Shown here: in pieces, positions 1-20,000 of the stretch | Position numbering within the stretch: position 1 is the first letter of the stretch | How the letters are laid out: each line of letters starts with the position of its first letter | Origin: an uncultured virus (IMG/VR IMGVR_UViG_3300036823_000386) | Taxonomy: Duplodnaviria > Heunggongvirae > Uroviricota > Caudoviricetes | DNA: 20,000 nt | Virus record (IMG/VR): IMGVR_UViG_3300036823_000386 | Strand: one strand, 5' to 3' | The notes under the pieces: model-generated | Databases searched by the model: none | What the model saw: only the letters and a program-made list of their open reading frames with translations | What the model was told of the DNA's origin: nothing | Position numbers and translations under genes: made by a program

Positions 1-672
1 GAAATAGCCTTGATGATAGGTTTCACCATGGCGCAGGAAGGACCAGAGGAGTTGCAAAGCCCACGTGGCCACGCTTTGGTTGATGAACAGGTCCTGGCGT
101 TCCAATGCTGCGGCGAGGCTGCAACTGGGCGTGGTGTTGTCCTCCTTGACTTTGCCGCGGTTGAGTTCGGGAAAGATTTCGAGGACGGTGCGCGGGCGCG
201 TGTGATCGCCTTTGTTGTGGTACCATTTGGGCGCGCCGAGGATGACCTGGCCGGTACGATCGCGATTGCCTAAATCGAGCCAGTAGTGAAAGTGGTTGCG
301 GCTGATCGCGCGGCGGCTGGTGATGGTATCCACGCAGCCGATGACGATGTGCGGCTGCAAAGTTCCGCCGTCCGACATCCTGGGCACGGCTGTCCAGCCG
401 AGACCATAGTAACAATTCAGCCGATGAATCAGGACGGAAGCTTTGTTTTGTCCGATGTCCGAAGGGCTGAAAAGCTGGCGGCCGACATTGGCTTCGGAAA
501 CAGAATCGCCATCAAACGCGATGACTTTGAGGCCGGGATGGCCGAGGGATTGAAGGGCGATGTGCATGCGGGCAAGGCCATTTAGCATTTGCGAGCCGTT
601 GCCTCCGCAACCGACCAAGTCAATGCTCACCTGCGCGCCGACCAAATCTTTGTGGAGTTTATGAGGAATCAT
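1..672 (-). CDS. PRTRC system ThiF-family (E1-like) protein, 3' end truncated by the window edge
   Basis: Not in the ORF track; translated by hand from ATG at 672, which overlaps the upstream TGA (ATGA). MIPHKLH...IDLVGCGGNGSQ...FDGDSVSEANVGRQLF...GCVD...YWLDLGN...GQVILG...TPSCSLAAALERQDLFINQ shows the GxGGxG nucleotide-binding loop, NxxRQ and the PSCS..AL..Q.LF.N signature. Confidence 0.93.
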   Translation of the reverse strand, partial: MIPHKLHKDLVGAQVSIDLVGCGGNGSQMLNGLARMHIALQSLGHPGLKVIAFDGDSVSEANVGRQLFSPSDIGQNKASVLIHRLNCYYGLGWTAVPRMSDGGTLQPHIVIGCVDTITSRRAISRNHFHYWLDLGNRDRTGQVILGAPKWYHNKGDHTRPRTVLEIFPELNRGKVKEDNTTPSCSLAAALERQDLFINQSVATWALQLLWSFLRHGETYHQGYF

Positions 673-1406
673 AGATTGGTTTGATGCTTGAGCCATGAAC
701 CGAGCTTGGTGCTGTTGTAGGGCTGGAGATATTTGCGCGGGAAAACTTTCGCGGTCTGCATTTCACGCCAAAGACCGAGGTGTGAATCAGGATGGCGGGT
801 GAGTTTGTGGCCGTAGTTGGAATGGGAAAAGGCGGAGTCGAAAAATCCGGCTTCGAATTTTTCGATGAGCGACGGTGTGGCAATGTCCGGAAAGTGGGCG
901 GACCCTTTGCAGAGCGAGCCGTTGGCATCGCAATTATAATAGGGAGCCACGTAAAGCGGAGTGTCAGCGACAGGACGTTTGTTTTCTGCGAGCGCAAAGA
1001 CGCGGAGGCCGCGGTTTGCCGCGAAAAAGAGTGGCGGATGCATGACGAATCGTCCGTTGAGTTTGCGCAATCCTTCGTTGACGTCCTTATCGCTCCCCGA
1101 TGGCTTGAACCAGATGCGGCGGCGGCGCGCCGGGCACCACCACGTCATCTGCGAAAGGCTAATGCTCAGGATGCGCTCGGGGAGAAGATGGTTCTCGAGC
1201 TTTCGACCGAGGGATTCGGCCAGTGCTTCCACACCGGCAACGGTGACCGGCTGGCCAGCTTTGAGAACGGGCCGCCCATGCACAAGATCCACTTCATGGA
1301 TAGAAGCGGCGGCGGCGCTGGAAGAACCCTGCTCCTCGTAAATGAGAACGGCGTGGGCAAGGTGAAAGTTGCGCTCGGCATTTCCGAATTTGGCTTCAAC
1401 GCGCAT
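669..1406 (-). CDS. PRTRC system protein B (prokaryotic E2 family D-like)
   Basis: Motifs WWCPARRRRIWF, PPLFF, VFAL..NKRP..TPLYVAPYYN...GSLCKGS, FFDSAFSH; lies between protein F and ThiF. Confidence 0.9.
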   Translation of the reverse strand: MRVEAKFGNAERNFHLAHAVLIYEEQGSSSAAAASIHEVDLVHGRPVLKAGQPVTVAGVEALAESLGRKLENHLLPERILSISLSQMTWWCPARRRRIWFKPSGSDKDVNEGLRKLNGRFVMHPPLFFAANRGLRVFALAENKRPVADTPLYVAPYYNCDANGSLCKGSAHFPDIATPSLIEKFEAGFFDSAFSHSNYGHKLTRHPDSHLGLWREMQTAKVFPRKYLQPYNSTKLGSWLKHQTNL

Positions 1407-2535
1407 AGTTGTCCTTTCCGATCAATTTGATGAGATTTTCAGTGAGTTGCATGATGTGGAGATAATTGCGGAGGCGAACGACGGCGCGTTCGATGGATGG
1501 TTTGTCCCACCAGGCGAATGCGGCGTTGATTTCCATGGACGATTCGCCGGCTTCAAACATTGGGTTTATGACGTCGTCCCAGATTTGACACATGGGATCG
1601 CCCCCGCCCTGATTGTCGTATTTGTTCCAGTTCAAAAGGAACGGGCAAACTTCCCATTCCAAATGTTCAAAGCGATCGAAGTCGGATGAAAGCTTCCATG
1701 ACTTGGAGCGGCGGCTTAGGGTTTCAAGTCCTTTCATCAGCGCGCGTGTGGCAATGACGATATTTTTGTGGCGCGGGTGCTTGATGCGCTGGGCGAGAAG
1801 CGCACGGTAGGAAAATGGTTTGATAGCACCGCTCCCAGCCCAGCCGGGAATGGCTTTATCAAACTCCGCCTTTGTGTAAATGTTATAGTCTTTACGTATG
1901 TCGGCATCGCTGGTTCCAGGCGGATAGTTACCACGGATCTCGTCCATAAAATCGGACTCGTCCATTTCTCCGCGCCAATAGGCAGATTGACACCAGCCAT
2001 AAGCGCTACGCGGTGTCATGCCCCGGCAGGAATTGTGGAGACCTTCGTCGAGGGTACTAAGAACCGTTTGACCGAGCCGGGGCAGCGCAGCTTCCAATTC
2101 GCGTAGTGTAGGGCCGATGAGTTTGATGTAGGTTGACTCCATGTCGAGAGTCAGAAAAATGACGCCGACATTCTCCGGTGCATTGTTTTTCCGATAATCG
2201 AAATCATGGAATGACCCGAGTTCAGAGGCATCGTCGGTAAAATGCAGTTTGAGTTTGACGAGCGGATCCGGACGCGCGGTATCGCAAAGTTCGGCGAGCG
2301 CGCGGGCGCAAGAATTCCCAATGTGGCCGGTCCAGTGGCGGTCCTGCAGGACGTTTGCATCCGCTAGCCCTTCGGCAAACTGGGCGAGGCTTTGTTTGCT
2401 GCCTTCAACTTTGAAGCTGGGCAAGCAGGCAGAAAGGTCCGGGAGGGCTAAAGCGGTGGCGCAAGGAGCGATGACGGCATGGCGAAACGGAATCCGTGAG
2501 TCGTCCGGGCGAGTTTGTGTAGAGCTTTGCTGCAT
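1396..2535 (-). CDS. PRTRC system protein F (alpha-helical component)
   Basis: LALPDL near the N-terminus, IGPTLRELEAALPRLGQTVL, TP...YWRGEMDE; lies between proteins C and B and overlaps the B start. Confidence 0.8.
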   Translation of the reverse strand: MQQSSTQTRPDDSRIPFRHAVIAPCATALALPDLSACLPSFKVEGSKQSLAQFAEGLADANVLQDRHWTGHIGNSCARALAELCDTARPDPLVKLKLHFTDDASELGSFHDFDYRKNNAPENVGVIFLTLDMESTYIKLIGPTLRELEAALPRLGQTVLSTLDEGLHNSCRGMTPRSAYGWCQSAYWRGEMDESDFMDEIRGNYPPGTSDADIRKDYNIYTKAEFDKAIPGWAGSGAIKPFSYRALLAQRIKHPRHKNIVIATRALMKGLETLSRRSKSWKLSSDFDRFEHLEWEVCPFLLNWNKYDNQGGGDPMCQIWDDVINPMFEAGESSMEINAAFAWWDKPSIERAVVRLRNYLHIMQLTENLIKLIGKDNYAR

Positions 2536-2699
2536 ACCGTGAATTTCGGATTGTTGATGGGAAGGGGAGGAATGGTTTCTCCGCCTTGCTCCTGGGCGGC
2601 GATGGCAATTTTCTCGTGAAGGGAAAGCGCGGGTGATTTGACTCGCGCGCGACCGGAGGTTTTCCGGCGCGCGCGCGGCGACGATTTACGGCGCGGCAT
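2448..2699 (-). CDS. small basic hypothetical protein between PRTRC C and F
   Basis: ATG 2 nt after the protein C stop; fills the intergenic gap but overlaps F by 88 nt. Confidence 0.4.
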   Translation of the reverse strand: MPRRKSSPRARRKTSGRARVKSPALSLHEKIAIAAQEQGGETIPPLPINNPKFTVCSKALHKLARTTHGFRFAMPSSLLAPPL

Positions 2700-2701
2700 G
2701 A

Positions 2702-2911
2702 TTATCCCTTGGTGCCGGCGGAGACGATGAAGGTGTAAGTCTGGACATTTCCTTTCATCACCGGTCCGTCAATCGCGGCGGTGGCGAGTTCGGGGTGGTC
2801 GGTGCTTAGGATGTCGCGGGCTTGCTCGACGCTGATGACCGGGTTGGGGTCCGCGAGTTCAGTTCCTTTATAAACGAATTTCCGAGCGATGTTGGAGGCT
2901 TCGAGGGGCAT
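2702..2911 (-). CDS. PRTRC system protein C (prokaryotic ubiquitin-like)
   Basis: 69 aa; RKFVY..L.DPNP..S.EQ.RD....HPELATA.I.GP and C-terminal GTKG ending in Gly. Confidence 0.92.
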   Translation of the reverse strand: MPLEASNIARKFVYKGTELADPNPVISVEQARDILSTDHPELATAAIDGPVMKGNVQTYTFIVSAGTKG

Positions 2912-2949
2912 AGATTATTTTTCTTATTGGGTTGTGGTTTGAAAATGGA

Positions 2950-3447
2950 TTAGATGCCGAGGTCGCTGGTGGCTGCTTCGGCTGATTTATCTTTGGGAGC
3001 AGGTTTTGGCTGTTCCTTTTTCTCTGCGGGTTCGTCCTCGCCTTCGCCTTCGCCTTCGCCTTCGCCTTCGCCTTCGCCTTCGCCTTCAGCGGATGCATCG
3101 GACGCGGCGGCGGTGGTCGCGGCGGCTTTAGGCTTGGATTTAGGGGCGAGCTTGGAGGTCTTGGCGTGCTGGTGCGCGGCCTCGACGTCGGCGATGGTGT
3201 TGCGCAGGCCGACGGTGGACACCTGGAAGCGTTCGAGCGTGGCGGCGAATTCCGGGGAATCCAATTCCTCGACCGTGCCGACCATGGTGAGCGGCTGGCT
3301 CAGGGCTTTGCGATCTTCACCGTGCTGGCCGTCCATGGTGAACAGCTTGGGGGTGACGTTCACGCGGAACTGGGTTTCGTTTTCGCGCGTGATGTGGAGG
3401 ACGAGGGTATCGCCCTTTTTCAATATTGGAGTGAGTTCTTTGAACAT
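2950..3447 (-). CDS. PRTRC system protein E
   Basis: MFKELTPIL...V.VTPK...ALSQPLTMVGTVEELD..F, then a low-complexity Ala/Lys/Glu tail; first gene of the cassette. Confidence 0.87.
   Translation of the reverse strand: MFKELTPILKKGDTLVLHITRENETQFRVNVTPKLFTMDGQHGEDRKALSQPLTMVGTVEELDSPEFAATLERFQVSTVGLRNTIADVEAAHQHAKTSKLAPKSKPKAAATTAAASDASAEGEGEGEGEGEGEGEGEDEPAEKKEQPKPAPKDKSAEAATSDLGI
3037..3087. repeat. hexanucleotide microsatellite (TTCGCC) x~8 encoding a Gly-Glu tract
   Basis: Read directly from the sequence; in frame within protein E. Confidence 0.95.
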
Positions 3448-3473
3448 GATTTATTGGCGGTTAGGGAATTGAG

Positions 3474-4634
3474 TTATTTGCTTTCAGATTTTTTTTCGGC
3501 GGGTTTCTCTTCCGACTTTTTGCTGGGCGGGGTGATGGCGGCGGTGAGGGAAAGCCATTGACGGCTGGCGACTTTGATGACGGCGGGCTTGAATTCTCCG
3601 ATGCAATAGAGGCGCACTTCATCGTCATCCACGGCCGATAGCGCCTCGATCAGAAAGGGGAGATTGAAATTGACGGTGAGCGATTTGGTTTCGGGAATGA
3701 GCAAGGATTCGACGGCTTCACCGGGAATGTCTTTCCCGCGCCCGCGGACGGTGAGATTTTGTTTTTCGAATTCGAGGGTGCAAAGGTCCGTCACGAAGTT
3801 GACGCGCTGGAGCGTGCTTAACAGCAGGTGGCGATTGATGGGGATGCCCTCGCCCAGTTCCTTGGGGATGATGTTTTCGTAAGGCGGATATTTGCCTTCC
3901 ATGAGTTTGCTGCTCAAGAGGGTTTCGCCGATTTGAAAGTGCGCGGCGTTTTTGCCGATGCCGGCGGTGACGGTAAGAGCGGTTTCATTTTCCCCCGGTT
4001 TTTTGGTGGAGAGCAGGCGAAGCAATTCCTTGACGGCCTTTTGCGGGAGAATGAAATCGGCTTTTGCGCCGGCGACCCCCTCGGGCAACGGAACGGACTC
4101 GACGGCGAGGCGTTTGCCATCGCACGCGGCGACGGTGAGGCTGCCGTTGAGCCGCACGAGAGAACCCTGGAGCATGGCGCGCGCTTCATCCGCGCCCTGG
4201 CAGTAAGCGGTGGCGAGCAAGAGGCTGTGGAAGATGTGCTGGGTGAGTTGGAATTCGCGCGAATCATCGAGCTTGGGTACCGGCGGCATGTCCTTGGCGG
4301 GCATGGAACCGAGTTTGTAGCGCGACTGGCCGCACTCGATTTTCAAATCGTGCGTGAGTTCAATCAGTTCGACGGGTTGATCGCCGCTGAAGCTGTTGAC
4401 GAGGTTGTAGAGCATGGCGGCGTTGACGGTGCAGGAGCCGGTTTCCTCAACGTCCACGGGGATGCGTGTGCTGATGGAGATGTCGTTATCCGTGGCGCGC
4501 AGTTCCAGGCTTTTGCCCTGGGCGCGCAAACAGACGTTGGCAAGGATGGGCAGCGAACCATTTTTGGTGGTGGCGCTGCGGACGATGTTCAGGGCTTTGG
4601 TCAGCTCCTGACGCGGGAGACTTATTTTCATCAT
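3474..4634 (-). CDS. dnaN: DNA polymerase III beta subunit (sliding clamp), element-borne copy
   Basis: LPILANV, LELRATDNDISI, MLQG, AACDGKRLA, ILPQKAVKEL, SKLMEGKYPPYENIIP, FNLPFLIEAL. Start probably 4634 or 4631. No dnaA/recF/gyrB neighbours. Confidence 0.93.
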   Translation of the reverse strand: MMKISLPRQELTKALNIVRSATTKNGSLPILANVCLRAQGKSLELRATDNDISISTRIPVDVEETGSCTVNAAMLYNLVNSFSGDQPVELIELTHDLKIECGQSRYKLGSMPAKDMPPVPKLDDSREFQLTQHIFHSLLLATAYCQGADEARAMLQGSLVRLNGSLTVAACDGKRLAVESVPLPEGVAGAKADFILPQKAVKELLRLLSTKKPGENETALTVTAGIGKNAAHFQIGETLLSSKLMEGKYPPYENIIPKELGEGIPINRHLLLSTLQRVNFVTDLCTLEFEKQNLTVRGRGKDIPGEAVESLLIPETKSLTVNFNLPFLIEALSAVDDDEVRLYCIGEFKPAVIKVASRQWLSLTAAITPPSKKSEEKPAEKKSESK

Positions 4635-4805
4635 ATGCGGATTGCGGTTGGGGTGGGAGATTTCCGCCACACGGCGAAAAGTTTTGGGCTAGACGGGTAC
4701 TGAAAAGAAAGAAAACGGGGTTAGCGCGGCGCGCTGGACGTGTGTCCATCGGGTGTCTATAAAACACACGACGAACACACAAGGCAAGCTTTATTTCTAG
4801 AAATC

Positions 4806-4835
4806 AAAAAGGCCCGCACGAACGGCGTGCGGGCC
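4806..4835 (-). terminator. intrinsic terminator
   Basis: Perfect 10-bp stem GGCCCGCACG/CGTGCGGGCC followed by T5 on the minus strand. Confidence 0.8.
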
Positions 4836-4861
4836 GGAGGCAGTTACTGGAAGAGTGTCAG

Positions 4862-4882
4862 TGCGGAATGCGGAGTGCGGAA
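4862..4882. repeat. TGCGGAR heptamer x3
   Basis: tgcggaa tgcggag tgcggaa; the same unit occurs at 6011-6024 and 10859-10886. Confidence 0.8.
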
Positions 4883-5158
4883 TTATGCGCGGGAAAACCA
4901 GATTACACCGTCGCCTTTAGTTTCGGCAATGAACCCAGGAACGTAATCAGGTTTTTGCATTTCGTGATCCGGGAACCGCTGTTCGAATTTTTTGATTGCT
5001 GCCTTGAGCAAGGAAATTTTTTGCCGTGGAGTTAGCAACCGTTTTTCATCCATCACGCGGATGTTAAAGGTATCGCCCTTAAATTGCCCCCAATCTTCCA
5101 GGAGATAATTTACTTTAATGTAGGCGGCTCCCGTGGTTATTGCTTTTGGTTTTGCCAT
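4883..5158 (-). CDS. hypothetical protein (91 aa)
   Basis: ATG 11 nt after the upstream stop, co-oriented with its neighbours, followed by a terminator. Confidence 0.65.
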   Translation of the reverse strand: MAKPKAITTGAAYIKVNYLLEDWGQFKGDTFNIRVMDEKRLLTPRQKISLLKAAIKKFEQRFPDHEMQKPDYVPGFIAETKGDGVIWFSRA

Positions 5159-5169
5159 AATCGTTTTTT

Positions 5170-5382
5170 TTAATTGCGGCCGTCGTGGGAGATGTGCCAA
5201 TCAGTCACGGACTGACGGGCTTCTTCGAGTTCGCGGCGGGTGCGTTGGAGGGATTCGTGATCGGGTTCACCGCTGCCTTCGCCACGTTTGATGATTTGTT
5301 CAAGCTGGCGTTCGAGTTGGACGACGTTCTGCCGCAGTTGGGCGATGGATGGCGCATCAGACATGCGGCAGAACATAATCAT
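5170..5382 (-). CDS. small coiled-coil hypothetical protein
   Basis: ATG abuts the ATPase stop (alternative start 5364); heptad-like IAQLRQNVVQLERQLEQII. Confidence 0.6.
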   Translation of the reverse strand: MIMFCRMSDAPSIAQLRQNVVQLERQLEQIIKRGEGSGEPDHESLQRTRRELEEARQSVTDWHISHDGRN

Positions 5383-6003
5383 TTAAGCGGCGGCCTGCAA
5401 GGCGCTTTCGGCATCAATGAGCGCGGCACGCACATTGCCGGCGGCGCCAAAGGCGATGTGGGTGATGGTGCGCTCGTCGGTTAAAAACTTGCGCAGCAGG
5501 CCTTGGACTTCGTGTTCCAGCGGGGGAGCCATTTCATAAATTTTGAAGCGGGTTTGAAAACGCTTTTTGAATTCGTCCACCTTGCAGTTGCTGGTGCAGA
5601 TGACGGCGGCGCCATCGGGCAGATCGTCGAGCAGGGTGAGGAACCGAACCTGGGCCACGGCGGGAATCATGTCGGCTTCCTCGATCCAAATGATGCGGTA
5701 TGCGCCGTAGATATCGCAATAGTGCAAGTCGCGGGCGATTTCTTCCACGGTCTCGAGTTTGATTTGAGTGCCGTTATATTTTTTGTAGGACCATTTATCG
5801 GAAGGGTTCGCGCCGAGCAGGGTGATCAAATAGCGCGACACGGCACTTTTGCCGATGCCGGGCTCGCCATTGAACAGGACTTTGATGGGCGCGTTGGCGT
5901 GGGCTTTGGCATCGGTGGCGACGCGGCCGAGTTGCAGGGAAACAGTTTTGGCATCGCCGATGAAATCGGCGGGCGACTTGGGGATATATCGGGTGGGAAG
6001 CAT
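5383..6003 (-). CDS. AAA+ ATPase of the clamp-loader clade (RFC small subunit/DnaX/RarA-like), short form
   Basis: RYIPKSPADFIG (RFC-box-like), Walker A GEPGIGKS, Walker B IIWIEEAD, CTSN sensor 1, QTRF (SRC-like arginine finger), GNVRAAL sensor 2. Confidence 0.82.
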   Translation of the reverse strand: MLPTRYIPKSPADFIGDAKTVSLQLGRVATDAKAHANAPIKVLFNGEPGIGKSAVSRYLITLLGANPSDKWSYKKYNGTQIKLETVEEIARDLHYCDIYGAYRIIWIEEADMIPAVAQVRFLTLLDDLPDGAAVICTSNCKVDEFKKRFQTRFKIYEMAPPLEHEVQGLLRKFLTDERTITHIAFGAAGNVRAALIDAESALQAAA

Positions 6004-6030
6004 AATTCAATGCGGAGTGTGGAATTAAAA

Positions 6031-6858
6031 TCAGGCGGCGACGGCTACGCGAGTGGCGAGCCAGTCTTTTACAGTTTTGGAGTTGATGATTTTGGCGACG
6101 TTGCCGGATTGCCATTTGCCGGTGTTGAAGCGGGTTTCGCCTTTGTATTTGATGATGTCGCCCCGGCCATGTTTGGTGGGGACGTTGTGGGCATTGAGGT
6201 TTTTCGCGATGCTGTGATAGCCCCAGCCGGCGTTGCGAAGCTGGACCATGTAGAGGATCCATTTTTGCTCTTCGAGATTGTCCACGAGCTTGCGGATGTT
6301 GACGGTGTGTTTGCCTTTGGGGCGAGCTTCGCCGGTTTCGACGGCGTCCCAGCCATACGGCACAGTGCCGCACAGTTCGCCTTTGGAGCGTTTTTCCTCG
6401 AAGCCGGCGGCGATGCGTTCGTGGATGCGGGCGAGTTCAAGCTGGGCAAAAATGGCGGCGATCTGAAGGAAGGCCATGCCCATGGGCGTGGTGGTATCGC
6501 AACCGATATCGAGGAACACCATGCGGACCTTGAGCGAGTGAAACAGCTTCACGGTTTGGGAAACGTCAATGGTATCGCGACCGAGCCGGTCCACCTTCGG
6601 GATGATCATGGTGACCGAACGATTGGCGGCGAGCGCTTCGTGAGCGACGGCGACGAGACGCTTGCCTTCCTTGCGTTCGGCAAAGACGGAAGCGCCGCTG
6701 GCGTTCGCTTCCGCGAAGATGATGGGTTCGGGCAACTGATACGCGGTGCTGTACCGGCGGATGGTTTCGCTTTGGGCGTCCACCGAAAGTTCCTGACGAT
6801 CGGTGGACACGCGGATATAGCCCAGGCAAATGGCGGCGGGCGGAGAATTAGTTGTCAT
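6031..6858 (-). CDS. serine recombinase (resolvase catalytic domain plus recombinase DNA-binding domain)
   Basis: GYIRVSTDRQ catalytic Ser motif, DRLGR, FAQLE..I.ER, PYGW, IAKNLN...PT...W...V.KI. Start probably ATG 6858. Confidence 0.92.
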   Translation of the reverse strand: MTTNSPPAAICLGYIRVSTDRQELSVDAQSETIRRYSTAYQLPEPIIFAEANASGASVFAERKEGKRLVAVAHEALAANRSVTMIIPKVDRLGRDTIDVSQTVKLFHSLKVRMVFLDIGCDTTTPMGMAFLQIAAIFAQLELARIHERIAAGFEEKRSKGELCGTVPYGWDAVETGEARPKGKHTVNIRKLVDNLEEQKWILYMVQLRNAGWGYHSIAKNLNAHNVPTKHGRGDIIKYKGETRFNTGKWQSGNVAKIINSKTVKDWLATRVAVAA

Positions 6859-6884
6859 ACAATGAAGGATTGAACTGCGCAGAG

Positions 6885-6916
6885 TCGTGAGGGCACGACG
6901 GCCCATTGGGGGACCG
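6885..6916. repeat. 32-bp direct repeat, copy 1
   Basis: TCGTGAGGGCACGACGGCCCATTGGGGGACCG; 31/32 identical to 7907-7938. Confidence 0.95.
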
Positions 6917-6921
6917 ATTGG

Positions 6922-7377
6922 CTATGCGTTGCGGAGGAAACGGGTGCGCCAGGCGGGTAGTTGGCCGGGTGCAGGCGGATTGATGGGAATGGATTTGGCG
7001 ACCTGGCTGGCGGGTTGTTCGTCGAAATTTACTTTCACGACGTTGGGCACTGGCGCTGGCCCGGGTGGATTGCCGGAGATGAGTTGTTCGGCGAATTTGC
7101 GGGTGACGTCGTTGCGGCGGGCATACCAATATTTTAATTTGCGATGCCAATGCCATTGGTGCGCGGCGGGAAGTTCGGCGGTGCGATGGAAGGCGGCGAG
7201 GGTGGGTTCATCGGGCCGCGTGGGGAAACGCAGTTCGAGGCCGTCCTTGGCGTTGTTCTCGGTGAGCGTAGGAGAGTGCGAGATGACGGGCGGCCGTGGA
7301 ATATCGCCCTTGGGCAATGGCTGAGGGCGTTGGGGTTTGACGGGCGCGTTGGGGCGCAGAGGATTGAAGCGTGGCAT
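6922..7377 (-). CDS. hypothetical protein with a GLELRF..RP...W.W....WYA motif
   Basis: Co-oriented, 8 nt after the radC stop. The aromatic core resembles a small domain I recall from plasmid/ICE proteins (DUF3560-like C-termini; tentative). Confidence 0.7.
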   Translation of the reverse strand: MPRFNPLRPNAPVKPQRPQPLPKGDIPRPPVISHSPTLTENNAKDGLELRFPTRPDEPTLAAFHRTAELPAAHQWHWHRKLKYWYARRNDVTRKFAEQLISGNPPGPAPVPNVVKVNFDEQPASQVAKSIPINPPAPGQLPAWRTRFLRNA

Positions 7378-7385
7378 GATTTTAT

Positions 7386-7904
7386 TTATTTGGTTGAGGG
7401 GGAAATGTAACCGAGTTCGCGAAGGGAACAGTGGCGGCCGGCGCCGATGATGATGTGGTCTTCGACTTCGATTTTAAGCAGTTGACCGGCGCGCACCATG
7501 TCCCGGGTGACTTTGATATCTCCTTCCGACGGACCTGGATCGCCACTGGGATGATTGTGGCAGAGAATAATGGCGGCAGCGCTGGTCATGATGGCGACGC
7601 GAAAGACTTCGCGCGCGTGGACGAGCAAGGTGTCCATGGTTCCCGTAGCGACGAGGTAATGGCCTTTGATGCGGCGGCGGGTATTCAAGATCAGGACGAC
7701 GAAACATTCGACTTCAGGATTGTAATTCGGAGCTTGGGTGACGTGCGTCCGCCAGTAGGTGGCGGCAGGCTTTGGATTCTCGCAAAGCAGCAAATCTTCC
7801 GGCGTTGGGCATTCACGCAGAGAGATGACTTTCCATTCGTGGGGTTGCGCGGGGAATTTGTGCGGTGCGACGGATGAAGATTCAAAGGCAAAGCAGGTTT
7901 GCAT
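7386..7904 (-). CDS. radC: RadC-like JAB/MPN domain protein
   Basis: ECFVVLILN, HAREVFR, HNHPSGDPGPSEGD (HxH-x7-S-x2-D), DHIIIG; JAB-only form of the kind carried by mobile elements. Confidence 0.93.
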   Translation of the reverse strand: MQTCFAFESSSVAPHKFPAQPHEWKVISLRECPTPEDLLLCENPKPAATYWRTHVTQAPNYNPEVECFVVLILNTRRRIKGHYLVATGTMDTLLVHAREVFRVAIMTSAAAIILCHNHPSGDPGPSEGDIKVTRDMVRAGQLLKIEVEDHIIIGAGRHCSLRELGYISPSTK

Positions 7905-7906
7905 AA

Positions 7907-7938
7907 TCGTGAGGGCACGACGGCCCATTGGTGGACCG
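7907..7938. repeat. 32-bp direct repeat, copy 2
   Basis: TCGTGAGGGCACGACGGCCCATTGGTGGACCG; ends 2 nt before the radC ATG. Confidence 0.95.
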
Positions 7939-7975
7939 TGCGGAGTTTTTGTTTATCGGCGAAGGAAAGCTGGAA

Positions 7976-8698
7976 TCAGACCGGTTTCCAGCAGTCGGGA
8001 GAATCGTTCTTCCAATGGTTCACGAGCTGGCCGACGCGGTAGGAGTGCATATTGGCGGCGGGAGACGGAACGAGCGCGCTTTGCAGGATGTCAACGAGGT
8101 CGGTGGTGGGGGCGATGTTGCCGAAGCCACGCGGCCATTGGCCGGGGGTGATGGAGGAAAATTGCTGGCCTTTAAGCCAGGTGGAATAATGGCTGGGACT
8201 GAGGATGACGGGCATGCGGTCGTGGACGCGCGCGACGAGCGGATTGGCGTTGCAGGTGATGATGCAGAATTGTTCGATGACGCAGCTTGCGGGTGGCGAG
8301 TCGGTAAGATCCATTTCCATTTCAGCGTGCGCGGGGGAAATGATTTTCTGATAAATGCCGGCGAGATAAAAAGTTTCGTCATCCCGCATCACAAAGCGCC
8401 AGGGCAATTTGTCTTTCCATTCGTAGAAACCGTTGGCGGGGATAAGGCAACGGGTTTCGAGACAAGGTTTGCGGAAAAACTTCAGCGCGGTTTCCGCCCG
8501 GGCATTGATGAGGAGCGGTTTGTTGGGGCGTTCCCAACCCCATTGCATCGGCTTGGACGTGACGGCATTATTTTCAAACAGGATGACGGGCAGGGAATTT
8601 TTGGGCGCGGCGTTATAGCGGGTTTCAAAGGTAAAATCATGATAAATACCAGCAATGGTGATTTCGCCCCGGTCTCCCACGCTATAACGTCCGCACAT
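7976..8698 (-). CDS. SOS response-associated peptidase (SRAP, YedK/HMCES family; abasic-site crosslinking)
   Basis: N-terminal MCGRY with Cys2, YNAAP, MQWG, INARAET, RCLIPANGFYEW, HDRMPVIL. Confidence 0.95.
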   Translation of the reverse strand: MCGRYSVGDRGEITIAGIYHDFTFETRYNAAPKNSLPVILFENNAVTSKPMQWGWERPNKPLLINARAETALKFFRKPCLETRCLIPANGFYEWKDKLPWRFVMRDDETFYLAGIYQKIISPAHAEMEMDLTDSPPASCVIEQFCIITCNANPLVARVHDRMPVILSPSHYSTWLKGQQFSSITPGQWPRGFGNIAPTTDLVDILQSALVPSPAANMHSYRVGQLVNHWKNDSPDCWKPV

Positions 8699-13098: not shown

Positions 13099-13504
13099 AA
13101 CTTGCTTTCATTAATTAAGATTGACTCGCGCAGACTTGCCCGCGCCCGCAACCACTCCGGGCCGGAGTGACTGGGGACGCGAACATGGCGCGTGCGTTTC
13201 AGTCTCACGCGCTTCCAAAGCGCGGATGAGACAAACTGCCATAGGTTAAGATTGACGTGCGCAGGCTCGCGAGCGAGTCGCGCAAAACAACGGTGGCGTA
13301 TGGCTGGGTGGTTGTCTCCATGGGGGAGTCAACCGAACTGCATAGAGTGAGATTGACTCGCGCAGGCTCGCGGTCGCGATGCCGCGACGGGTGGCGATGG
13401 CTGGGAGGGGAGTTGCCGCGCCGCGCTGGGTGTTGCGCGGGCGCGAAAAAACCGCGCAGGGCGAGCCGTGCGCGGGCGTGAGGGAGGGATTGACAGACTC
13501 AGGC
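13099..13504. repeat. degenerate array with core GATTGAC-N2-GCGCAGRCTYGC
   Basis: GATTGAC cores at 13119, 13250 and 13351, and a weaker one at 13488; a second box RTGRCTGGG lies 46-50 nt downstream in the first three. Confidence 0.75.
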
Positions 13505-15334
13505 CGGGGCGTGACCGGACAGCCAGCCTGAGCGCAGACCGCGTGTGCCAGCATCCCAATCCGCGAGGCGGGCAGCGTGCGACTGGCGGAGAGCCGCGCG
13601 GGCGGCGCGAGCGACGGCAACGGCCTCGCCGCGTGCGGTGGTGGCGCGTGACCAGTCAGCGGCGAGGGGATGCACGGCCCCGCGCCCGGCGCGGCCACTG
13701 GTGACCACGGCCCGGCGACTGGCGGGCAACGTGAGTGTGACCTTTCCGGCGAGCGCGGCGGGGACATCACCGCGCAGGGCGGTTGAGTAGTGCGCGGAGA
13801 CCGCGCCGCTCACGAGTGACACGATGCGGGCGACGGAGGCTCGCTGAGCTGATTTGCCACATCCCGCCCGCGCGGCGCGTTGCGCGGCCATCGCGGCCAT
13901 TGCGGCCTTGACGGCCCGCGCCCGGGCCATCATCAGACTCTTGTCCCGGCGCGTTAGCCGGTCAGTAATCGCCGCGCGAAGGCGCGGCCACACTTGACCG
14001 GCGCGGAAGGATTCGAGCGCGGCGCGGCCCGACGCAAAGCCCGCGCCGCGAGCGGCGGTGGCGATGTCGCGACCGTGGACGAGCCTCGCGAGCACGGAGA
14101 ACCGCGCCCGCTCGGCTGCGCCGGTGCGGCCTTTGGCCGCAACCCGGAGAACGGAACGAATCCAGCGCAGGACATCGCGGCGGGATTGCGCGTCCCGCTC
14201 CTCCTCGGTGCGGGGAGGAGCGATAAAGACTGTCGCGCGGTCCCGCGCCCACGACTTAAGCGCGGCGACATCGGCGGCGGACAGTGCGTGACCGGCGCAG
14301 GTGAGGAGACCGGCCTCGTACCGGCGCAGGATGTCGCCACCGAACCGCGTGGCGATTGCCCGGCGACCGGCGAGGGTGGTGACATCAGCGGCGGCGATGG
14401 CTGTCCGGATGGCGCAGACGGGGCAGGTGGCGGCGGTGGCGTGTGGCAGCACGACGGGCGCGACCGCGGTCAGTGTCTCAGCCACGTCGCTGGCGTCGTC
14501 CAGGGCGAGCATTGTCCCGCCGCCCAGGGCGAGTGATTGACCGGCGCGGTCGCCAGTGCGCCCCGCCGCTTGATGCGAGGTCAGGCAGCGGAAGGCTGCC
14601 CGCCAGCCGAAGGTTGCTAGGTGGCGCATGGTGGTTTCGTTCCACACGTCGCCACAGAGAGCCGAGTAGCATCGCCATTCGTACCACATGACAGCGGCGG
14701 CGGCGGCGGCGGCATCGGCGAGCGATGTGTCCGACGGCGCAACGCCGCGCCGGGCCTTGATGTGACGGGCGGCGCGGGCGGCCATGCCGGAGCATTGTAG
14801 GGTTACCATGCGGCGACCGTCGCCCCACCCACGTCCGCCCGCGAGATTGAGGATGCGTTGACCCTCGTCATTGTCGCTCGCAATGCTCTCCATGATGGCC
14901 GCGCGGCGGGCGCGAGTCTCGCGTAGCTCCTCCTCGACATCGAGCAGCTCGCGCCATTGGTCGGCGGGCAAGAGCGCAACGTCCGTGCCCATGGGCGCAA
15001 TCGCTTGGGCGCGGCTCGCAAGGTCGGATGCGGCGAGCCATGATTCGCGGGCGGATGCCCGCCTTGACTCTGCATCCATGCCCGCGCCCACGGCACGAGA
15101 ACGCTTGAGACGCGCATTGCCGCGCCCTGTTATATCGCCGCCATCGGCGGCGCCAACTTGTAGATGGACGCGCCCGGCTAACAATTCTGGTGTCCATTTG
15201 GCGGTTGCGCCGGGTGCGAGTACCGGCCCCGCGCCCCGCTGTTGGGTGCGTTGAAGAATTCCGGTCATGTGGCCTGTCCAGTTCCAGCGGTCACCGGCGG
15301 TTGGGTATCCAATGAGGAGTGTTTGCTTTGACAT
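13499..15334 (-). CDS. large Ala/Arg-rich hypothetical protein (611 aa) with a CPVC motif and a possible HTH
   Basis: The only long ORF in any frame across a very GC-rich 1.8-kb block; its start context AAACATATG is shared with the 12556 start. Confidence 0.6.
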   Translation of the reverse strand: MSKQTLLIGYPTAGDRWNWTGHMTGILQRTQQRGAGPVLAPGATAKWTPELLAGRVHLQVGAADGGDITGRGNARLKRSRAVGAGMDAESRRASARESWLAASDLASRAQAIAPMGTDVALLPADQWRELLDVEEELRETRARRAAIMESIASDNDEGQRILNLAGGRGWGDGRRMVTLQCSGMAARAARHIKARRGVAPSDTSLADAAAAAAAVMWYEWRCYSALCGDVWNETTMRHLATFGWRAAFRCLTSHQAAGRTGDRAGQSLALGGGTMLALDDASDVAETLTAVAPVVLPHATAATCPVCAIRTAIAAADVTTLAGRRAIATRFGGDILRRYEAGLLTCAGHALSAADVAALKSWARDRATVFIAPPRTEEERDAQSRRDVLRWIRSVLRVAAKGRTGAAERARFSVLARLVHGRDIATAARGAGFASGRAALESFRAGQVWPRLRAAITDRLTRRDKSLMMARARAVKAAMAAMAAQRAARAGCGKSAQRASVARIVSLVSGAVSAHYSTALRGDVPAALAGKVTLTLPASRRAVVTSGRAGRGAVHPLAADWSRATTARGEAVAVARAARAALRQSHAARLADWDAGTRGLRSGWLSGHAPA

Positions 15335-18664: not shown

Positions 18665-18997
18665 ATGTCTCTTCTGAAAGAAAAAAAGAAAATGCCTGGT
18701 GATGGAACTCCAATGATAGTTGTTTATAACATGACGCAACTTGCCAAGCAGGTGCATTACGGTTACACGTATATTTTTGCGGCAAAAAAGGCTGGTTTTC
18801 AATTTTCCCATGGTTCGCGCACCACCGAAAAAGCATGGTGGGACTGGCTCAAGGCTAATCCTGATTTTCGTGCTTCGGATTTTTTGAAGCCGAAGTCTCG
18901 CCGGGTTTCTTCACATTCAGAGCATTCCAATATGGCGCCAGCTCTTTCGGATCAATCCGGCGGTAAACCCGGTGAACGGTTGGAGACGCATGAGTAA
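18665..18997 (+). CDS. putative excisionase/recombination directionality factor-like DNA-binding protein
   Basis: Small, basic and adjacent to the integrase; YNMTQLAKQVHYGYTYI..AKKAGF....TT....WDWL is winged-HTH-like. Confidence 0.5.
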   Translation: MSLLKEKKKMPGDGTPMIVVYNMTQLAKQVHYGYTYIFAAKKAGFQFSHGSRTTEKAWWDWLKANPDFRASDFLKPKSRRVSSHSEHSNMAPALSDQSGGKPGERLETHE

Positions 18998-20000
18998 CCG
19001 CTTTCATCATCACCGTCTCGGGAACTCCGGCGCGCTCCATCCGGGTAATGGCAGTCACGCGTGTCGAGTGGAAGCTGATGTTTTCAAATCCCAGATAATG
19101 TTTGCGCAACCGTTTGAAAACTTTAAACCACGGCTGGGCCGGGTGTTTCGGCATCTCATAAGTGTAAGTGCGGCCGTCTTTTTTAAGCTGGTGGAGAAAG
19201 GGAAGCAGGTTGGGATTGATTGGAACGTCTTCAAATTTATTACCTTTGGCTTTTATGGGCAGGCTGCCGTGAGCGAAGTTAATACGGTCGAGGCGAATGT
19301 GAGTTTCCTTCAGGCGGATGCCTTGAAGCCGGGCGATTTCCCAGGACACGAAAAGGTAATCGGCAACCAATTTTTGTTTTGGCGTGTCGGCGGTGCGCAG
19401 GCGGCGTTTAACTTCGTCCTCGATCAAGGCAAACTGTTCGTCAGAAATTTCGTCTTTCACGCGCGAGGGATCTTTTTTCAGTCCGAGCCGGCTCGCGGGA
19501 TTGGCGATAATAAACTCCCGGTTAACTGCCTCCTGCATGATTTTGTGGAGCACACGCAATTCGAGAATGATCGTGTTTCGGCCCACGTGCTTTCCCTTTT
19601 CGGTTTGGGAATTGTTCAAATGGCGAACGTCGGAACGCCACGTCACATACTCCAAACAATGCGACCGGCGAACCTGAGCCGGTGCGGTTATTTTCAGTGC
19701 GGAAAAATAAGCCGCCAGAAGGTTCCAAGTGCTCAAATAACGCTTGAGCGTTCCCGGCGAATTGGCGTGGGTGGTTTTGATATAATCAGGAGCCCATTTG
19801 GAAAACGGGTTGAGGGCATTGGCCTTGGCGGAGTTTGTTTCTTTAACGGCATACTCGTTCCGCATCTGGACGGCTTTAAGATATTGCCGCGCATCGCCGG
19901 TATTAAAGCCGGTAGAGATTTGTTCAATCGCATCCGTCTCCGGATTGCGGAATTTCAACCACCAAAATTTAGAATTGCTTCGTTTGTAAAGGCTAGCCAT
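18855..20000 (-). CDS. int: tyrosine recombinase (phage-type integrase)
   Basis: MASLYKR...WWLKF arm-binding N-terminus, NPA core-binding end, and catalytic R (GIRLKE), K (AKGNK), HxxR (FHSTR), H (VTHAS) and Y (HRVY). Confidence 0.93.
   Translation of the reverse strand: MASLYKRSNSKFWWLKFRNPETDAIEQISTGFNTGDARQYLKAVQMRNEYAVKETNSAKANALNPFSKWAPDYIKTTHANSPGTLKRYLSTWNLLAAYFSALKITAPAQVRRSHCLEYVTWRSDVRHLNNSQTEKGKHVGRNTIILELRVLHKIMQEAVNREFIIANPASRLGLKKDPSRVKDEISDEQFALIEDEVKRRLRTADTPKQKLVADYLFVSWEIARLQGIRLKETHIRLDRINFAHGSLPIKAKGNKFEDVPINPNLLPFLHQLKKDGRTYTYEMPKHPAQPWFKVFKRLRKHYLGFENISFHSTRVTAITRMERAGVPETVMMKAVTHASPTVHRVYRRIDPKELAPYWNALNVKKPGETSASKNPKHENQD

Follow-up and report, generated by a model that had tools for sequence, protein, structure and literature searches.

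A sliding-clamp gene at the head of a reduced PRTRC cassette on a putative prophage, and a proposal that the cassette may act at the DNA-loaded clamp

PRTRC, the ParB-Related, ThiF-Related Cassette (models TIGR03734-03742), was described as operon type 6d by Iyer, Burroughs and Aravind in 2006 (available part of PMC1779556). It has been on record since then from plasmids, integrative elements and phages, including Burkholderia prophages (excerpt of PMC13366799), and in the literature we found no tested function for it. Here we describe a PRTRC locus in a stretch of 20,000 nucleotides (the window) from the uncultured virus record IMGVR_UViG_3300036823_000386 of IMG/VR, which is part of a 179,782-bp contig in a genome of 5.1 Mb that is 96% complete. 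In common with type 6d, the window has the gene order E-C-F-B-ThiF, an E2-like protein in which a His follows the conserved Cys, a ubiquitin-like protein (Ubl) with a C-terminal Gly, and a location on mobile DNA. It differs from type 6d in that protein A and ParB are missing and the Ubl is made already mature. In addition, a gene for a sliding clamp (dnaN) heads the operon and a putative clamp-loader-clade ATPase is encoded upstream, and neither is mentioned in the available part of PMC1779556. We propose, with a probability of roughly one half, that the reduced PRTRC cassette works at the DNA-loaded sliding clamp, with PRTRC E as the tether and with the clamp being the element's own where one is encoded. 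This clamp-directed reading is based on the identity and spacing of the genes, on a clamp link that is both conserved and recurrent, on the C-terminal tip of E and its co-variation with the clamp, and on the invariant Cys and His of protein B together with a protein C that ends in Gly.

The features that carry the argument are the following; families were judged by the curated bit-score cut-offs of NCBIfam (TIGR), with Pfam and PHROG comparisons alongside.

6003-5383, minus strand: AAA+ ATPase of 206 aa, putatively of the clamp-loader clade, below family cut-offs
4835-4811, minus strand: intrinsic-terminator-like hairpin with a 10-bp stem (9 G-C pairs) and a T-run tail, TTTTTGATTT, which separates the AAA+ block from the dnaN-PRTRC block
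4634-3474, minus strand: dnaN paralogue, 386 aa (TIGR00663, 201.7 bits against a cut-off of 137.65)
3447-2950, minus strand: PRTRC E, 165 aa (TIGR03741, 55.9 bits against 37.95)
2911-2702, minus strand: PRTRC C, ubiquitin-like, 69 aa (TIGR03738, 81.4 bits against 45.95; Prok_Ub, PF14454, 69.8 bits)
2535-1396, minus strand: PRTRC F (alpha-hel2), 379 aa (TIGR03742, 61.9 bits against 58.4)
1406-669, minus strand: PRTRC B, E2-like (Prok-E2_D, PF14460), 245 aa (TIGR03737, 178.9 bits against 131.45)
696-1, minus strand, running off the window: PRTRC ThiF, E1-like adenylyltransferase (TIGR03736, 256.6 bits against 144.75 on 232 aa; full length 263 aa)

An earlier note, made from the letters of the window without database searches, had described a sliding clamp at the head of a ubiquitin-like PRTRC operon. 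Using Pfam and NCBIfam, we recovered every gene it had named, in the same places and all on the minus strand, and a check with the PRTRC hidden Markov models found five components above the curated cut-offs in the order E-C-F-B-ThiF. ThiF shows a loop of the GxGxxG type and the Cys segment PSCS, C166 and H195 of protein B were invariant in an alignment of 19 sequences, and protein C ends in ...GTKG directly before the stop codon, giving a free C-terminal Gly. There is no room for protein A (a JAB protein with a JAB-N domain, TIGR03735) between B and ThiF, which overlap by 28 nt, and no match to it was obtained genome-wide, although the control genomes were silent too and the search was thus a weak one. 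ParB (TIGR03734) had no match on contig C27, with three ParB-like matches below the cut-off on other contigs (C34, C18 and C11), and no ParB family was seen among the open reading frames (ORFs) scanned around the cassette. The only unassigned ORF in the operon is a doubtful one of 83 aa; protein D (TIGR03739) was not searched for.

To place the C-terminus of protein C in context, we used 80 related loci, obtained by scanning one genome per species with a PRTRC-B alignment. Protein C ended at Gly where the JAB gene was absent, and where it was present C carried an extension of 2-10 aa after ...AKG. No processing peptidase would be needed by the window cassette because its Ubl already ends in Gly. 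The cassette is a reduced PRTRC, without JAB and ParB, whose Ubl is made already mature. In these loci the JAB gene is seen as some 500-600 nt that separate B from ThiF (L014-L090), and the JAB-less loci are the window, L009, L011, L013, L033, L036, L054, L060, L084 and L085. Two loci, L074 and L090, depart from the rule: they have the B-ThiF gap, yet their protein C ends at Gly. In the clade of families f30 and f23, protein C ends in ...VGTFR, ...IGDFN or ...VGNFN and not in Gly, though no JAB gene is present (L096:8205-8546, L098:6149-6424, L091:8302-8550, L093:8099-8467); these C proteins either use a different chemistry or are not conjugated through a C-terminal Gly. A sulfur-carrier role of the ThiS/MoaD type was considered for the cassette and set aside, since an E2-like protein with a conserved Cys and the lack of biosynthetic neighbours argue against it. 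PRTRC F gave a confident AlphaFold model with a pLDDT of 83.6 and a pTM of 0.83, and no counterpart was found for it among solved structures (best Foldseek E-value 0.49, best VIA Z 4.3); E1 enzymes listed by Foldseek at a TM score of about 0.1 were not credited. The first 38 residues of F are disordered, and its true start may lie further downstream.

As the earlier note stated, the stop codon of dnaN (3474-3476) lies 26 nt ahead of the start of E (3447). The gap between E and C is 38 nt, and F overlaps B by 11 nt. The terminator between dnaN and the upstream genes, which the note had put at 4806-4835, was also found; this hairpin is one of the two strongest among the 22 terminator-like sites in the scan. 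Such sites were not enriched overall (22 found, 16.1 +/- 4.8 in shuffles), and no comparable minus-strand site was present between 4670 and 696. The proposed single operon dnaN-E-C-F-B-ThiF fits the short gaps and overlaps and the lack of a strong internal terminator, and judged by this spacing the six genes are probably co-transcribed. A promoter-like site at 2943-2914, between E and C, was not credited (2 such sites found, 3.9 expected by chance).

The window DnaN matches all three beta-clamp domains (PF00712, PF02767 and PF02768). Another contig of the genome carries the chromosomal dnaN, which scored 336.8 bits compared with 201.5 bits for the window copy in the genome search; the window dnaN therefore encodes an extra, element-borne and divergent clamp. 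A search of 5.8 billion proteins gave 12 relatives of the same subfamily with 37-52% identity, and all 12 have a Lys/Glu/Pro-rich C-terminal tail. In the beta clamp, the canonical C-terminal strand (...VVMPMR...) lines the peptide-binding pocket. The chromosomal DnaN ends in FLYVVMPMRLS; the window copy does not conform to this and reads WLSLTAAITPP followed by a Lys/Glu-rich tail, and the subfamily as a whole shows W-L-[SC]-[LV]-[TI]-A at the position of the canonical strand, followed by the Lys-rich tail. Scans of viral contigs with PRTRC B, DnaN and the DnaN alignment gave no relative, an initial scan of genome contigs with the DnaN alignment found none, and a scan of metagenomes gave two short contigs only.

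The AAA+ protein scored 30.8 against a cut-off of 180.6 for holB and 21.9 against 27 for PF13177, and matched phrog_5846 ('clamp loader') at 1.2e-11; its best match in the PDB was the RFC small subunit (E-value 8e-4). Its AAA+ motifs are invariant in three copies: Walker A GxPGxGKSA, Walker B IWIxExD, CTSN, the Arg motif [ST]RF (SRC-type, R152) and the sensor-2 motif GNVR (GxxR, R192). With 206 aa, the protein consists of domains I-II and ends right after the sensor-2 helix, without the C-terminal collar domain (domain III). Judged by these matches and motifs, it is a collar-less member of the clamp-loader clade. The gene is kept upstream of dnaN in L011 (2e-61) and L013 (3e-46), so that the clamp-loader-clade ATPase named in the earlier note travels with dnaN in three of four clade loci (the window, L011 and L013, but not L009).

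When the 80 related loci were searched with a DnaN profile within 10 kb of PRTRC B, a clamp gene was found in three, L011, L013 and L033. L011 has the same order as the window (serine recombinase, AAA, dnaN, E, C, F, B, ThiF) and a terminator-like site between AAA and dnaN at a place matching that of the window. The order in L013 is AAA, dnaN, E, C, F, B, ThiF. In the metagenome contig L009, dnaN-E-C is followed by the end of the contig. Only 4 nt separate dnaN from E in L011, compared with 31 nt in L013 and 29 nt in L009. L033, from a metagenome-assembled genome (MAG), has ThiF, one ORF, dnaN and a methylase, with no dnaA nearby. For 6 of the 12 relatives in the DnaN subfamily, the longest contig is equal in size to that of a close PRTRC-B relative (87484, 57936, 545465, 37649, 55917 and 109171), which points to DnaN and PRTRC-B relatives on the same contigs.

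A tree of PRTRC B was built by a quick method with SH-aLRT support only, from 80 rows (the window and 79 of the 80 loci, one fragment being dropped). The window groups with L011, L012 and L013 (SH-aLRT 96), and all three assessable members of this clade have the arrangement AAA..dnaN-E-C-F-B-ThiF, L012 being a contig of 1.7 kb. In the sister group of six, only L033 is clamp-linked, and the remaining 70 rows, of which 65 are from Burkholderiaceae and 5 from Geobacter, Desulfuromonadaceae or Rubrivivax, are without dnaN. We also sampled 400 other genomes of the phylum of the window; 10 had a PRTRC-B-like match, and 10 places at an E-value of at most 1e-25 were taken and 3 weak ones left out. The order B-ThiF-dnaN was seen in 5/5 assessable loci of family f30 and in 0/3 of family f23, two loci being too short. 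Each of the four f30 genomes checked also keeps a chromosomal dnaN. One f30 genome, G082, has four full-length dnaN genes (contigs C116, C6, C109 and C62), only one of them of chromosomal type and one PRTRC-linked.

Three Nostocales plasmids added further cases, two with a complete PRTRC-like cassette and one with fragments. In Anabaena pANACY.02 and a Sphaerospermopsis plasmid the order is E2_D-JAB-ThiF-x-x-dnaN-dnaX, and in a Brasilonema plasmid, which gave no match for E2_D, JAB and a split ThiF precede dnaN-dnaX by about 5 kb. A tree of DnaN was then considered (50 rows, with every second generic relative from P0014-P0054, a quick method and a midpoint root, the Nostocales plasmid clamps being left out). 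The window subfamily forms a clade of 15 rows (support 100) which holds all four 5'-linked clamps; the 3'-linked clamps of f30 form a clade of 7 rows (support 99) within a clade of 12 rows (support 100) that includes the f23/f30 chromosomal clamps, and the L033 clamp is placed elsewhere. From these placements, there were at least three recruitments of a clamp to the side of the cassette, at one end or the other, which is hard to explain by inherited synteny alone. The repeated recruitment is also compatible with both genes merely preferring the same replication region. Tabulating the adjacency of dnaN and PRTRC was a test that the earlier note had set beforehand, and the adjacency proved not to be sporadic: within the closest clade it does not vary, and elsewhere it has arisen again independently.

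Some further observations were made on the mobile clamps. In one member of the DnaN subfamily, P0013 (686 aa), DnaN is fused to some 300 additional N-terminal residues that contain an NPPF motif, and the clamp ORF of L013 has an N-terminal extension of 137 aa. DNA methylases accompany mobile clamps in P0013, L013:5960-7603, L033:13705-14688 and L004:9752-10528; in L033 an N6 methylase comes directly after dnaN, and one lies about 9 kb downstream in the element of the window. A gene of the DUF6094 methyltransferase family lies a few kb from a mobile dnaN in the Acidobacteriota MAG (L033:16791-18017) and in two Bacillales plasmids (L117:11244-12284 and L120:15544-16602).

Another characteristic that may suggest a role at the clamp is the architecture of protein E. 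Its AlphaFold model, for which 131 sequences were used, is confident over the head (residues ~1-100, block means 85-98); the tail, with a pLDDT of 53-70, is a disordered acidic/Lys-rich linker with (EG)n and ends in ...SDLGI. Comparison of the head with solved folds gave a best Foldseek E-value of 0.19 and a best VIA Z of 5.8, both within noise, and in the ESM Atlas only PRTRC_E clusters were found. Clamp-binding motifs include QL[SD]LF and QLxLxL peptides and the ...LGL at the C-terminus of Pol IV, and the C-terminal hydrophobic tip of E resembles them. A tip of the form x[SD]L[FIL] or LG[FIL] ends 41 of 127 E representatives, and its strict form 27 of 127; when the last 30 residues were shuffled, the tip occurred 2.1 times on average (at most 7 in 500 shuffles) and the strict form 0.5 times. 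The same pattern ends 0/56 DnaN relatives and 3/39 B relatives.

The tips differ between loci: SDLGI in the window, TPLGL in L011, TPSLI in L013, EEIL in L009, and GTDLASLL and similar tips in Burkholderiaceae. The proteins at the position of E end in QGELSLF in f30, in QPELDFGF or QMELDLAFNF in f23, and in NQLTLF in the Anabaena plasmid; QGELSLF and NQLTLF, both from clamp-linked loci, are clear forms of the motif. Clamps that end in ...MPMR/MPLR (chromosomal, f30 and L033) pair with tips of the ...LSLF type where E was seen, and the clamps of the window subfamily (W-L-x-x-x-A and a Lys-rich tail) pair with DLGI, PLGL, PSLI and EEIL. In these comparisons, the tip of E and the C-terminal strand of the clamp vary together. 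Other classes of E tail were noticed as well (among P0096-P0222), namely an acidic ...[DE][DE]AA, for example in P0138, P0144, P0216 and P0218, and ...[LF]xYPD in P0127, P0166 and P0171, which hints that different tail classes may have different docking partners.

Taken together, these features can be arranged into what we see as the most likely course of events. The element would make its own clamp, possibly handled by the small ATPase. PRTRC E would dock on the DNA-loaded clamp through the hydrophobic tip at the end of its long disordered linker and would so bring ThiF, B and C to replicating DNA. ThiF would adenylate C, Cys166 of B would accept it, and from there it would be conjugated to some protein present at the clamp, whether the clamp, E or a client bound to the clamp. 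Such conjugation at the clamp would control the replication or establishment of the element. Binding of E to the clamp, the conjugation and the identity of its target are what we infer from sequence, and on present evidence the clamp is better seen as a platform on which PRTRC E docks than as a demonstrated substrate. In a bolder version, PRTRC would be a clamp-directed Ubl conjugation system of mobile elements, in which E docks and ThiF and B attach C to the clamp (perhaps to its Lys-rich tail) or to a clamp-bound client, thereby switching the mode of replication or damage tolerance. We consider this version unlikely, but if true it would give PCNA ubiquitylation its first counterpart in bacteria and would explain a cassette that has been without a known role since 2006.

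Several observations weigh against the proposal that the cassette works at the clamp, and part of them favour an explanation by co-location only, which we regard as possible but rather doubtful. According to it, dnaN, the AAA gene and PRTRC are separate cargo of a replication or establishment region; the clamp serves replication of the element with the host polymerase, and PRTRC does something else, for example partition, addiction or host takeover. dnaN does occur on mobile DNA, in 113 phage records and in 298 of 72,556 plasmid records, many of the latter resembling chromosomes or chromids, and it also travels with other replication genes: at 4 of the 7 plasmid loci inspected (Rhodoferax, Peribacillus, Alicyclobacillus and Thermoanaerobacterium) no PRTRC was found within 9 kb by annotation and phmmer, and SSB, primase or helicase genes stood beside dnaN instead. 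Most PRTRC loci were without dnaN within 10 kb (77/80 genome loci, 3/3 f23 loci and 2/2 phages), the two temperate phages being Dina and BgVeeders33, which have E-C-F-B-A-ThiF and no dnaN in the stretch inspected. PRTRC is moreover called a putative partitioning cassette in the available part of PMC13366799. The evidence from protein E is also open to objections: the tip pattern was defined after the tails had been seen, which inflates the contrast with the controls, though the gap is large; the SDLGI of the window is a weak version of the motif; 86 of the 127 representatives end otherwise, some being fragments and others belonging to different tail classes; and the f30 protein at the position of E is weakly linked to PRTRC E (hhalign probability 40.6%, E-value 2.9e-4). 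Both trees were made by a quick method without bootstrap and have long branches. What co-location does not readily accommodate is that dnaN was recruited directly beside the cassette, with gaps down to 4 nt, that dnaN has a base rate of about 0.4% or less among plasmids, and that E ends in a tip like a clamp-docking peptide which changes together with the C-terminal strand of the clamp.

The full model of the earlier note went further than the clamp-directed reading, and we think it quite unlikely. There the clamp is the covalent substrate of the Ubl C, as a counterpart of PCNA ubiquitylation, the RadC-JAB protein deconjugates it, and SRAP (SOS-response-associated peptidase) is a partner of the clamp in damage tolerance. 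The recurrent clamp link is in its favour, and so is the Lys-rich DnaN tail, which is conserved in the window subfamily and absent from canonical clamps; a long basic tail is also present on the clamp of the Anabaena plasmid, but the 3'-linked clamps of f30 and L033 have no Lys-rich tail. In eukaryotes, HMCES binds PCNA. However, RadC and SRAP did not hold up as parts of the system: among the 80 other loci, a single one (L090) had RadC and a single one (L019) had SRAP within 10 kb of PRTRC B, in both cases on the opposite strand, and in the window both belong to a separate transcription unit, cut off from the cassette by the strong terminator. L013 has neither of them upstream and carries a Cas10/Cmr2-like gene instead. 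As a Gly-ended Ubl needs no processing JAB, RadC was also rejected as a stand-in for the missing JAB protein, the lack of co-occurrence pointing the same way. RadC and SRAP are neighbours and not conserved partners. The remaining explanation, that PRTRC serves in conflicts as a defence or counter-defence system comparable to Bil or CBASS-Cap2, which tags competitor or host proteins while the clamp is a neighbour, sensor or decoy, seems improbable to us. It draws on the fact that the characterised bacterial E1-E2-Ubl operons are immune pathways (available part of PMC11601596) and that recurrent mutation of PRTRC B, as a hotspot next to the diversity-generating retroelement of a prophage, is reported in a preprint (10.64898/2026.10.01.756045, seen as an excerpt), and two loci unrelated to each other have type III CRISPR genes immediately ahead of the cassette, L013:62-1855 (minus strand; Cas10/Cmr2-like) and the Anabaena plasmid L116:1-2623 (minus strand; Csx11, a RAMP protein and Cmr1). 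Nevertheless, the cassette lies in replication or early regions of elements and not in defence islands, the only NCBIfam match to a defence family was a weak one of ThiF to NF058523 (24.7 bits compared with 320; PADLOC was not searched), and a role in conflict leaves the tip of E and the repeated recruitment of clamps unexplained.

The rest of the window up to the SRAP gene contains the following features.

8778-8751, minus strand: strong intrinsic-terminator-like hairpin with a 12-bp stem (9 G-C pairs) and a T-run, which precedes SRAP and marks the start of the SRAP-to-AAA block
8698-7976, minus strand: SRAP, 240 aa (PF02586, 138.3 bits; phrog_1599)
7928-7386, minus strand: RadC-like JAB protein, 180 aa (PF04002, 123.6 bits)
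7377-6922, minus strand: ORF of 151 aa, no match in Pfam, NCBIfam or PHROG
6906-6031, minus strand: small serine-recombinase-like protein, 291 aa (PF00239, 103.1 bits; phrog_95)
5382-5170, minus strand: ORF of 70 aa, coiled-coil-like, no Pfam match
5200-4883, minus strand: ORF of 105 aa, no match in Pfam, NCBIfam or PHROG
2699-2448, minus strand: doubtful ORF of 83 aa that begins 2 nt past the C stop codon and overlaps the frame of F; its N-terminus is basic

SRAP, the RadC-JAB protein and the ATPase are thus present upstream, as the earlier note had it, but it had overlooked the serine recombinase and the ORFs of 151, 70 and 105 aa, which are located between RadC and the terminator. The serine recombinase consists of a resolvase domain and only the start of a recombinase domain. 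It adjoins the AAA gene in L011 too (L011:1-828, match 1e-92) and may be an element-internal invertase or resolvase rather than an integrase. The 70-aa ORF was rejected as a conserved gene: there is an ORF at the equal position in L011, but the BLASTP E-value was 1.7. For the 83-aa ORF between C and F, no family was found in Pfam or NCBIfam and no match in the related loci at 1e-4. A tyrosine integrase lies at 18855-20000. Beyond ThiF there are genes of no named family, an SNF2-type helicase, the N6 methylase, a sigma-like protein and, on the opposite strand, a tape-measure-like gene of 1292 aa (PF10145, 4e-24); the next 20 kb showed no recognisable capsid, portal or terminase family. The DNA of the window belongs to an integrated mobile element, probably a prophage, of a soil bacterium, and the cassette sits in its early or replication region. 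Inside the element, between the end of the integrase and the SRAP block, we noticed an ORF of 611 aa (13499-15334, minus strand) in an island of 69-74% G+C with flanks of about 55%; it had no match in PHROG, the only collection with which it was compared.

PRTRC itself and its presence in phages are already on record; the clamp link appears new in the literature searched, in which we found no paper that joins PRTRC with a sliding clamp or dnaN and, among the papers listed, none that joins a clamp-binding motif with ubiquitin-like or ThiF proteins. The papers of Burroughs et al. of 2008, 2009 and 2011 were outside this search and may bear on novelty. A clamp link that recurs with independent origins, together with a protein E built like a tethered docking adaptor, provides a concrete and testable hypothesis for PRTRC. 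If it is true, Ubl control of the replication clamp, so far only that of eukaryotic PCNA, would extend to bacterial mobile elements. The version in the window would be a compact test case, being JAB-less, with a mature Ubl, a clamp of its own and a one-subunit ATPase that is clamp-loader-like.

How does this locus compare with other systems? In eukaryotes, PCNA is ubiquitylated by Rad6-Rad18. The likeness proposed for the window is that E1-E2-Ubl machinery would be brought to a sliding clamp by a clamp-docking adaptor; in contrast to PCNA ubiquitylation, the window has a bacterial beta clamp, an E2-like protein of an unrelated family and no recognised E3, and as it is known from its genes the parallel is a functional analogy only. 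Ralstonia phage Dina (NC_055026) and Burkholderia phage BgVeeders33 (OK665841) carry PRTRC in the early region of a temperate phage, with the gene order seen in the window, but they differ from it in having protein A between B and ThiF, a protein C of 129 aa, a B identity of only about 30-32% and no clamp gene in the part inspected. With Bil, type II CBASS Cap2/Cap3 and Bub, the window shares the E1-E2-Ubl logic and a patchy spread on mobile DNA (available part of PMC11601596). It differs from them in its E2 family, Prok-E2_D, and in the accessory proteins E and F; those systems are immune pathways or have a role that is still open, and the same part of that source mentions no clamp link. The Nostocales plasmids pANACY.02 and pBOCT1 differ from the window by full-length dnaX, holA and holB genes together with a polymerase, by the retained JAB and by a cassette that lies upstream of dnaN instead of downstream; what they have in common with the window is an extra clamp beside clamp-loader genes on mobile DNA, and a PRTRC-like E2_D-JAB-ThiF group lies just upstream of it.

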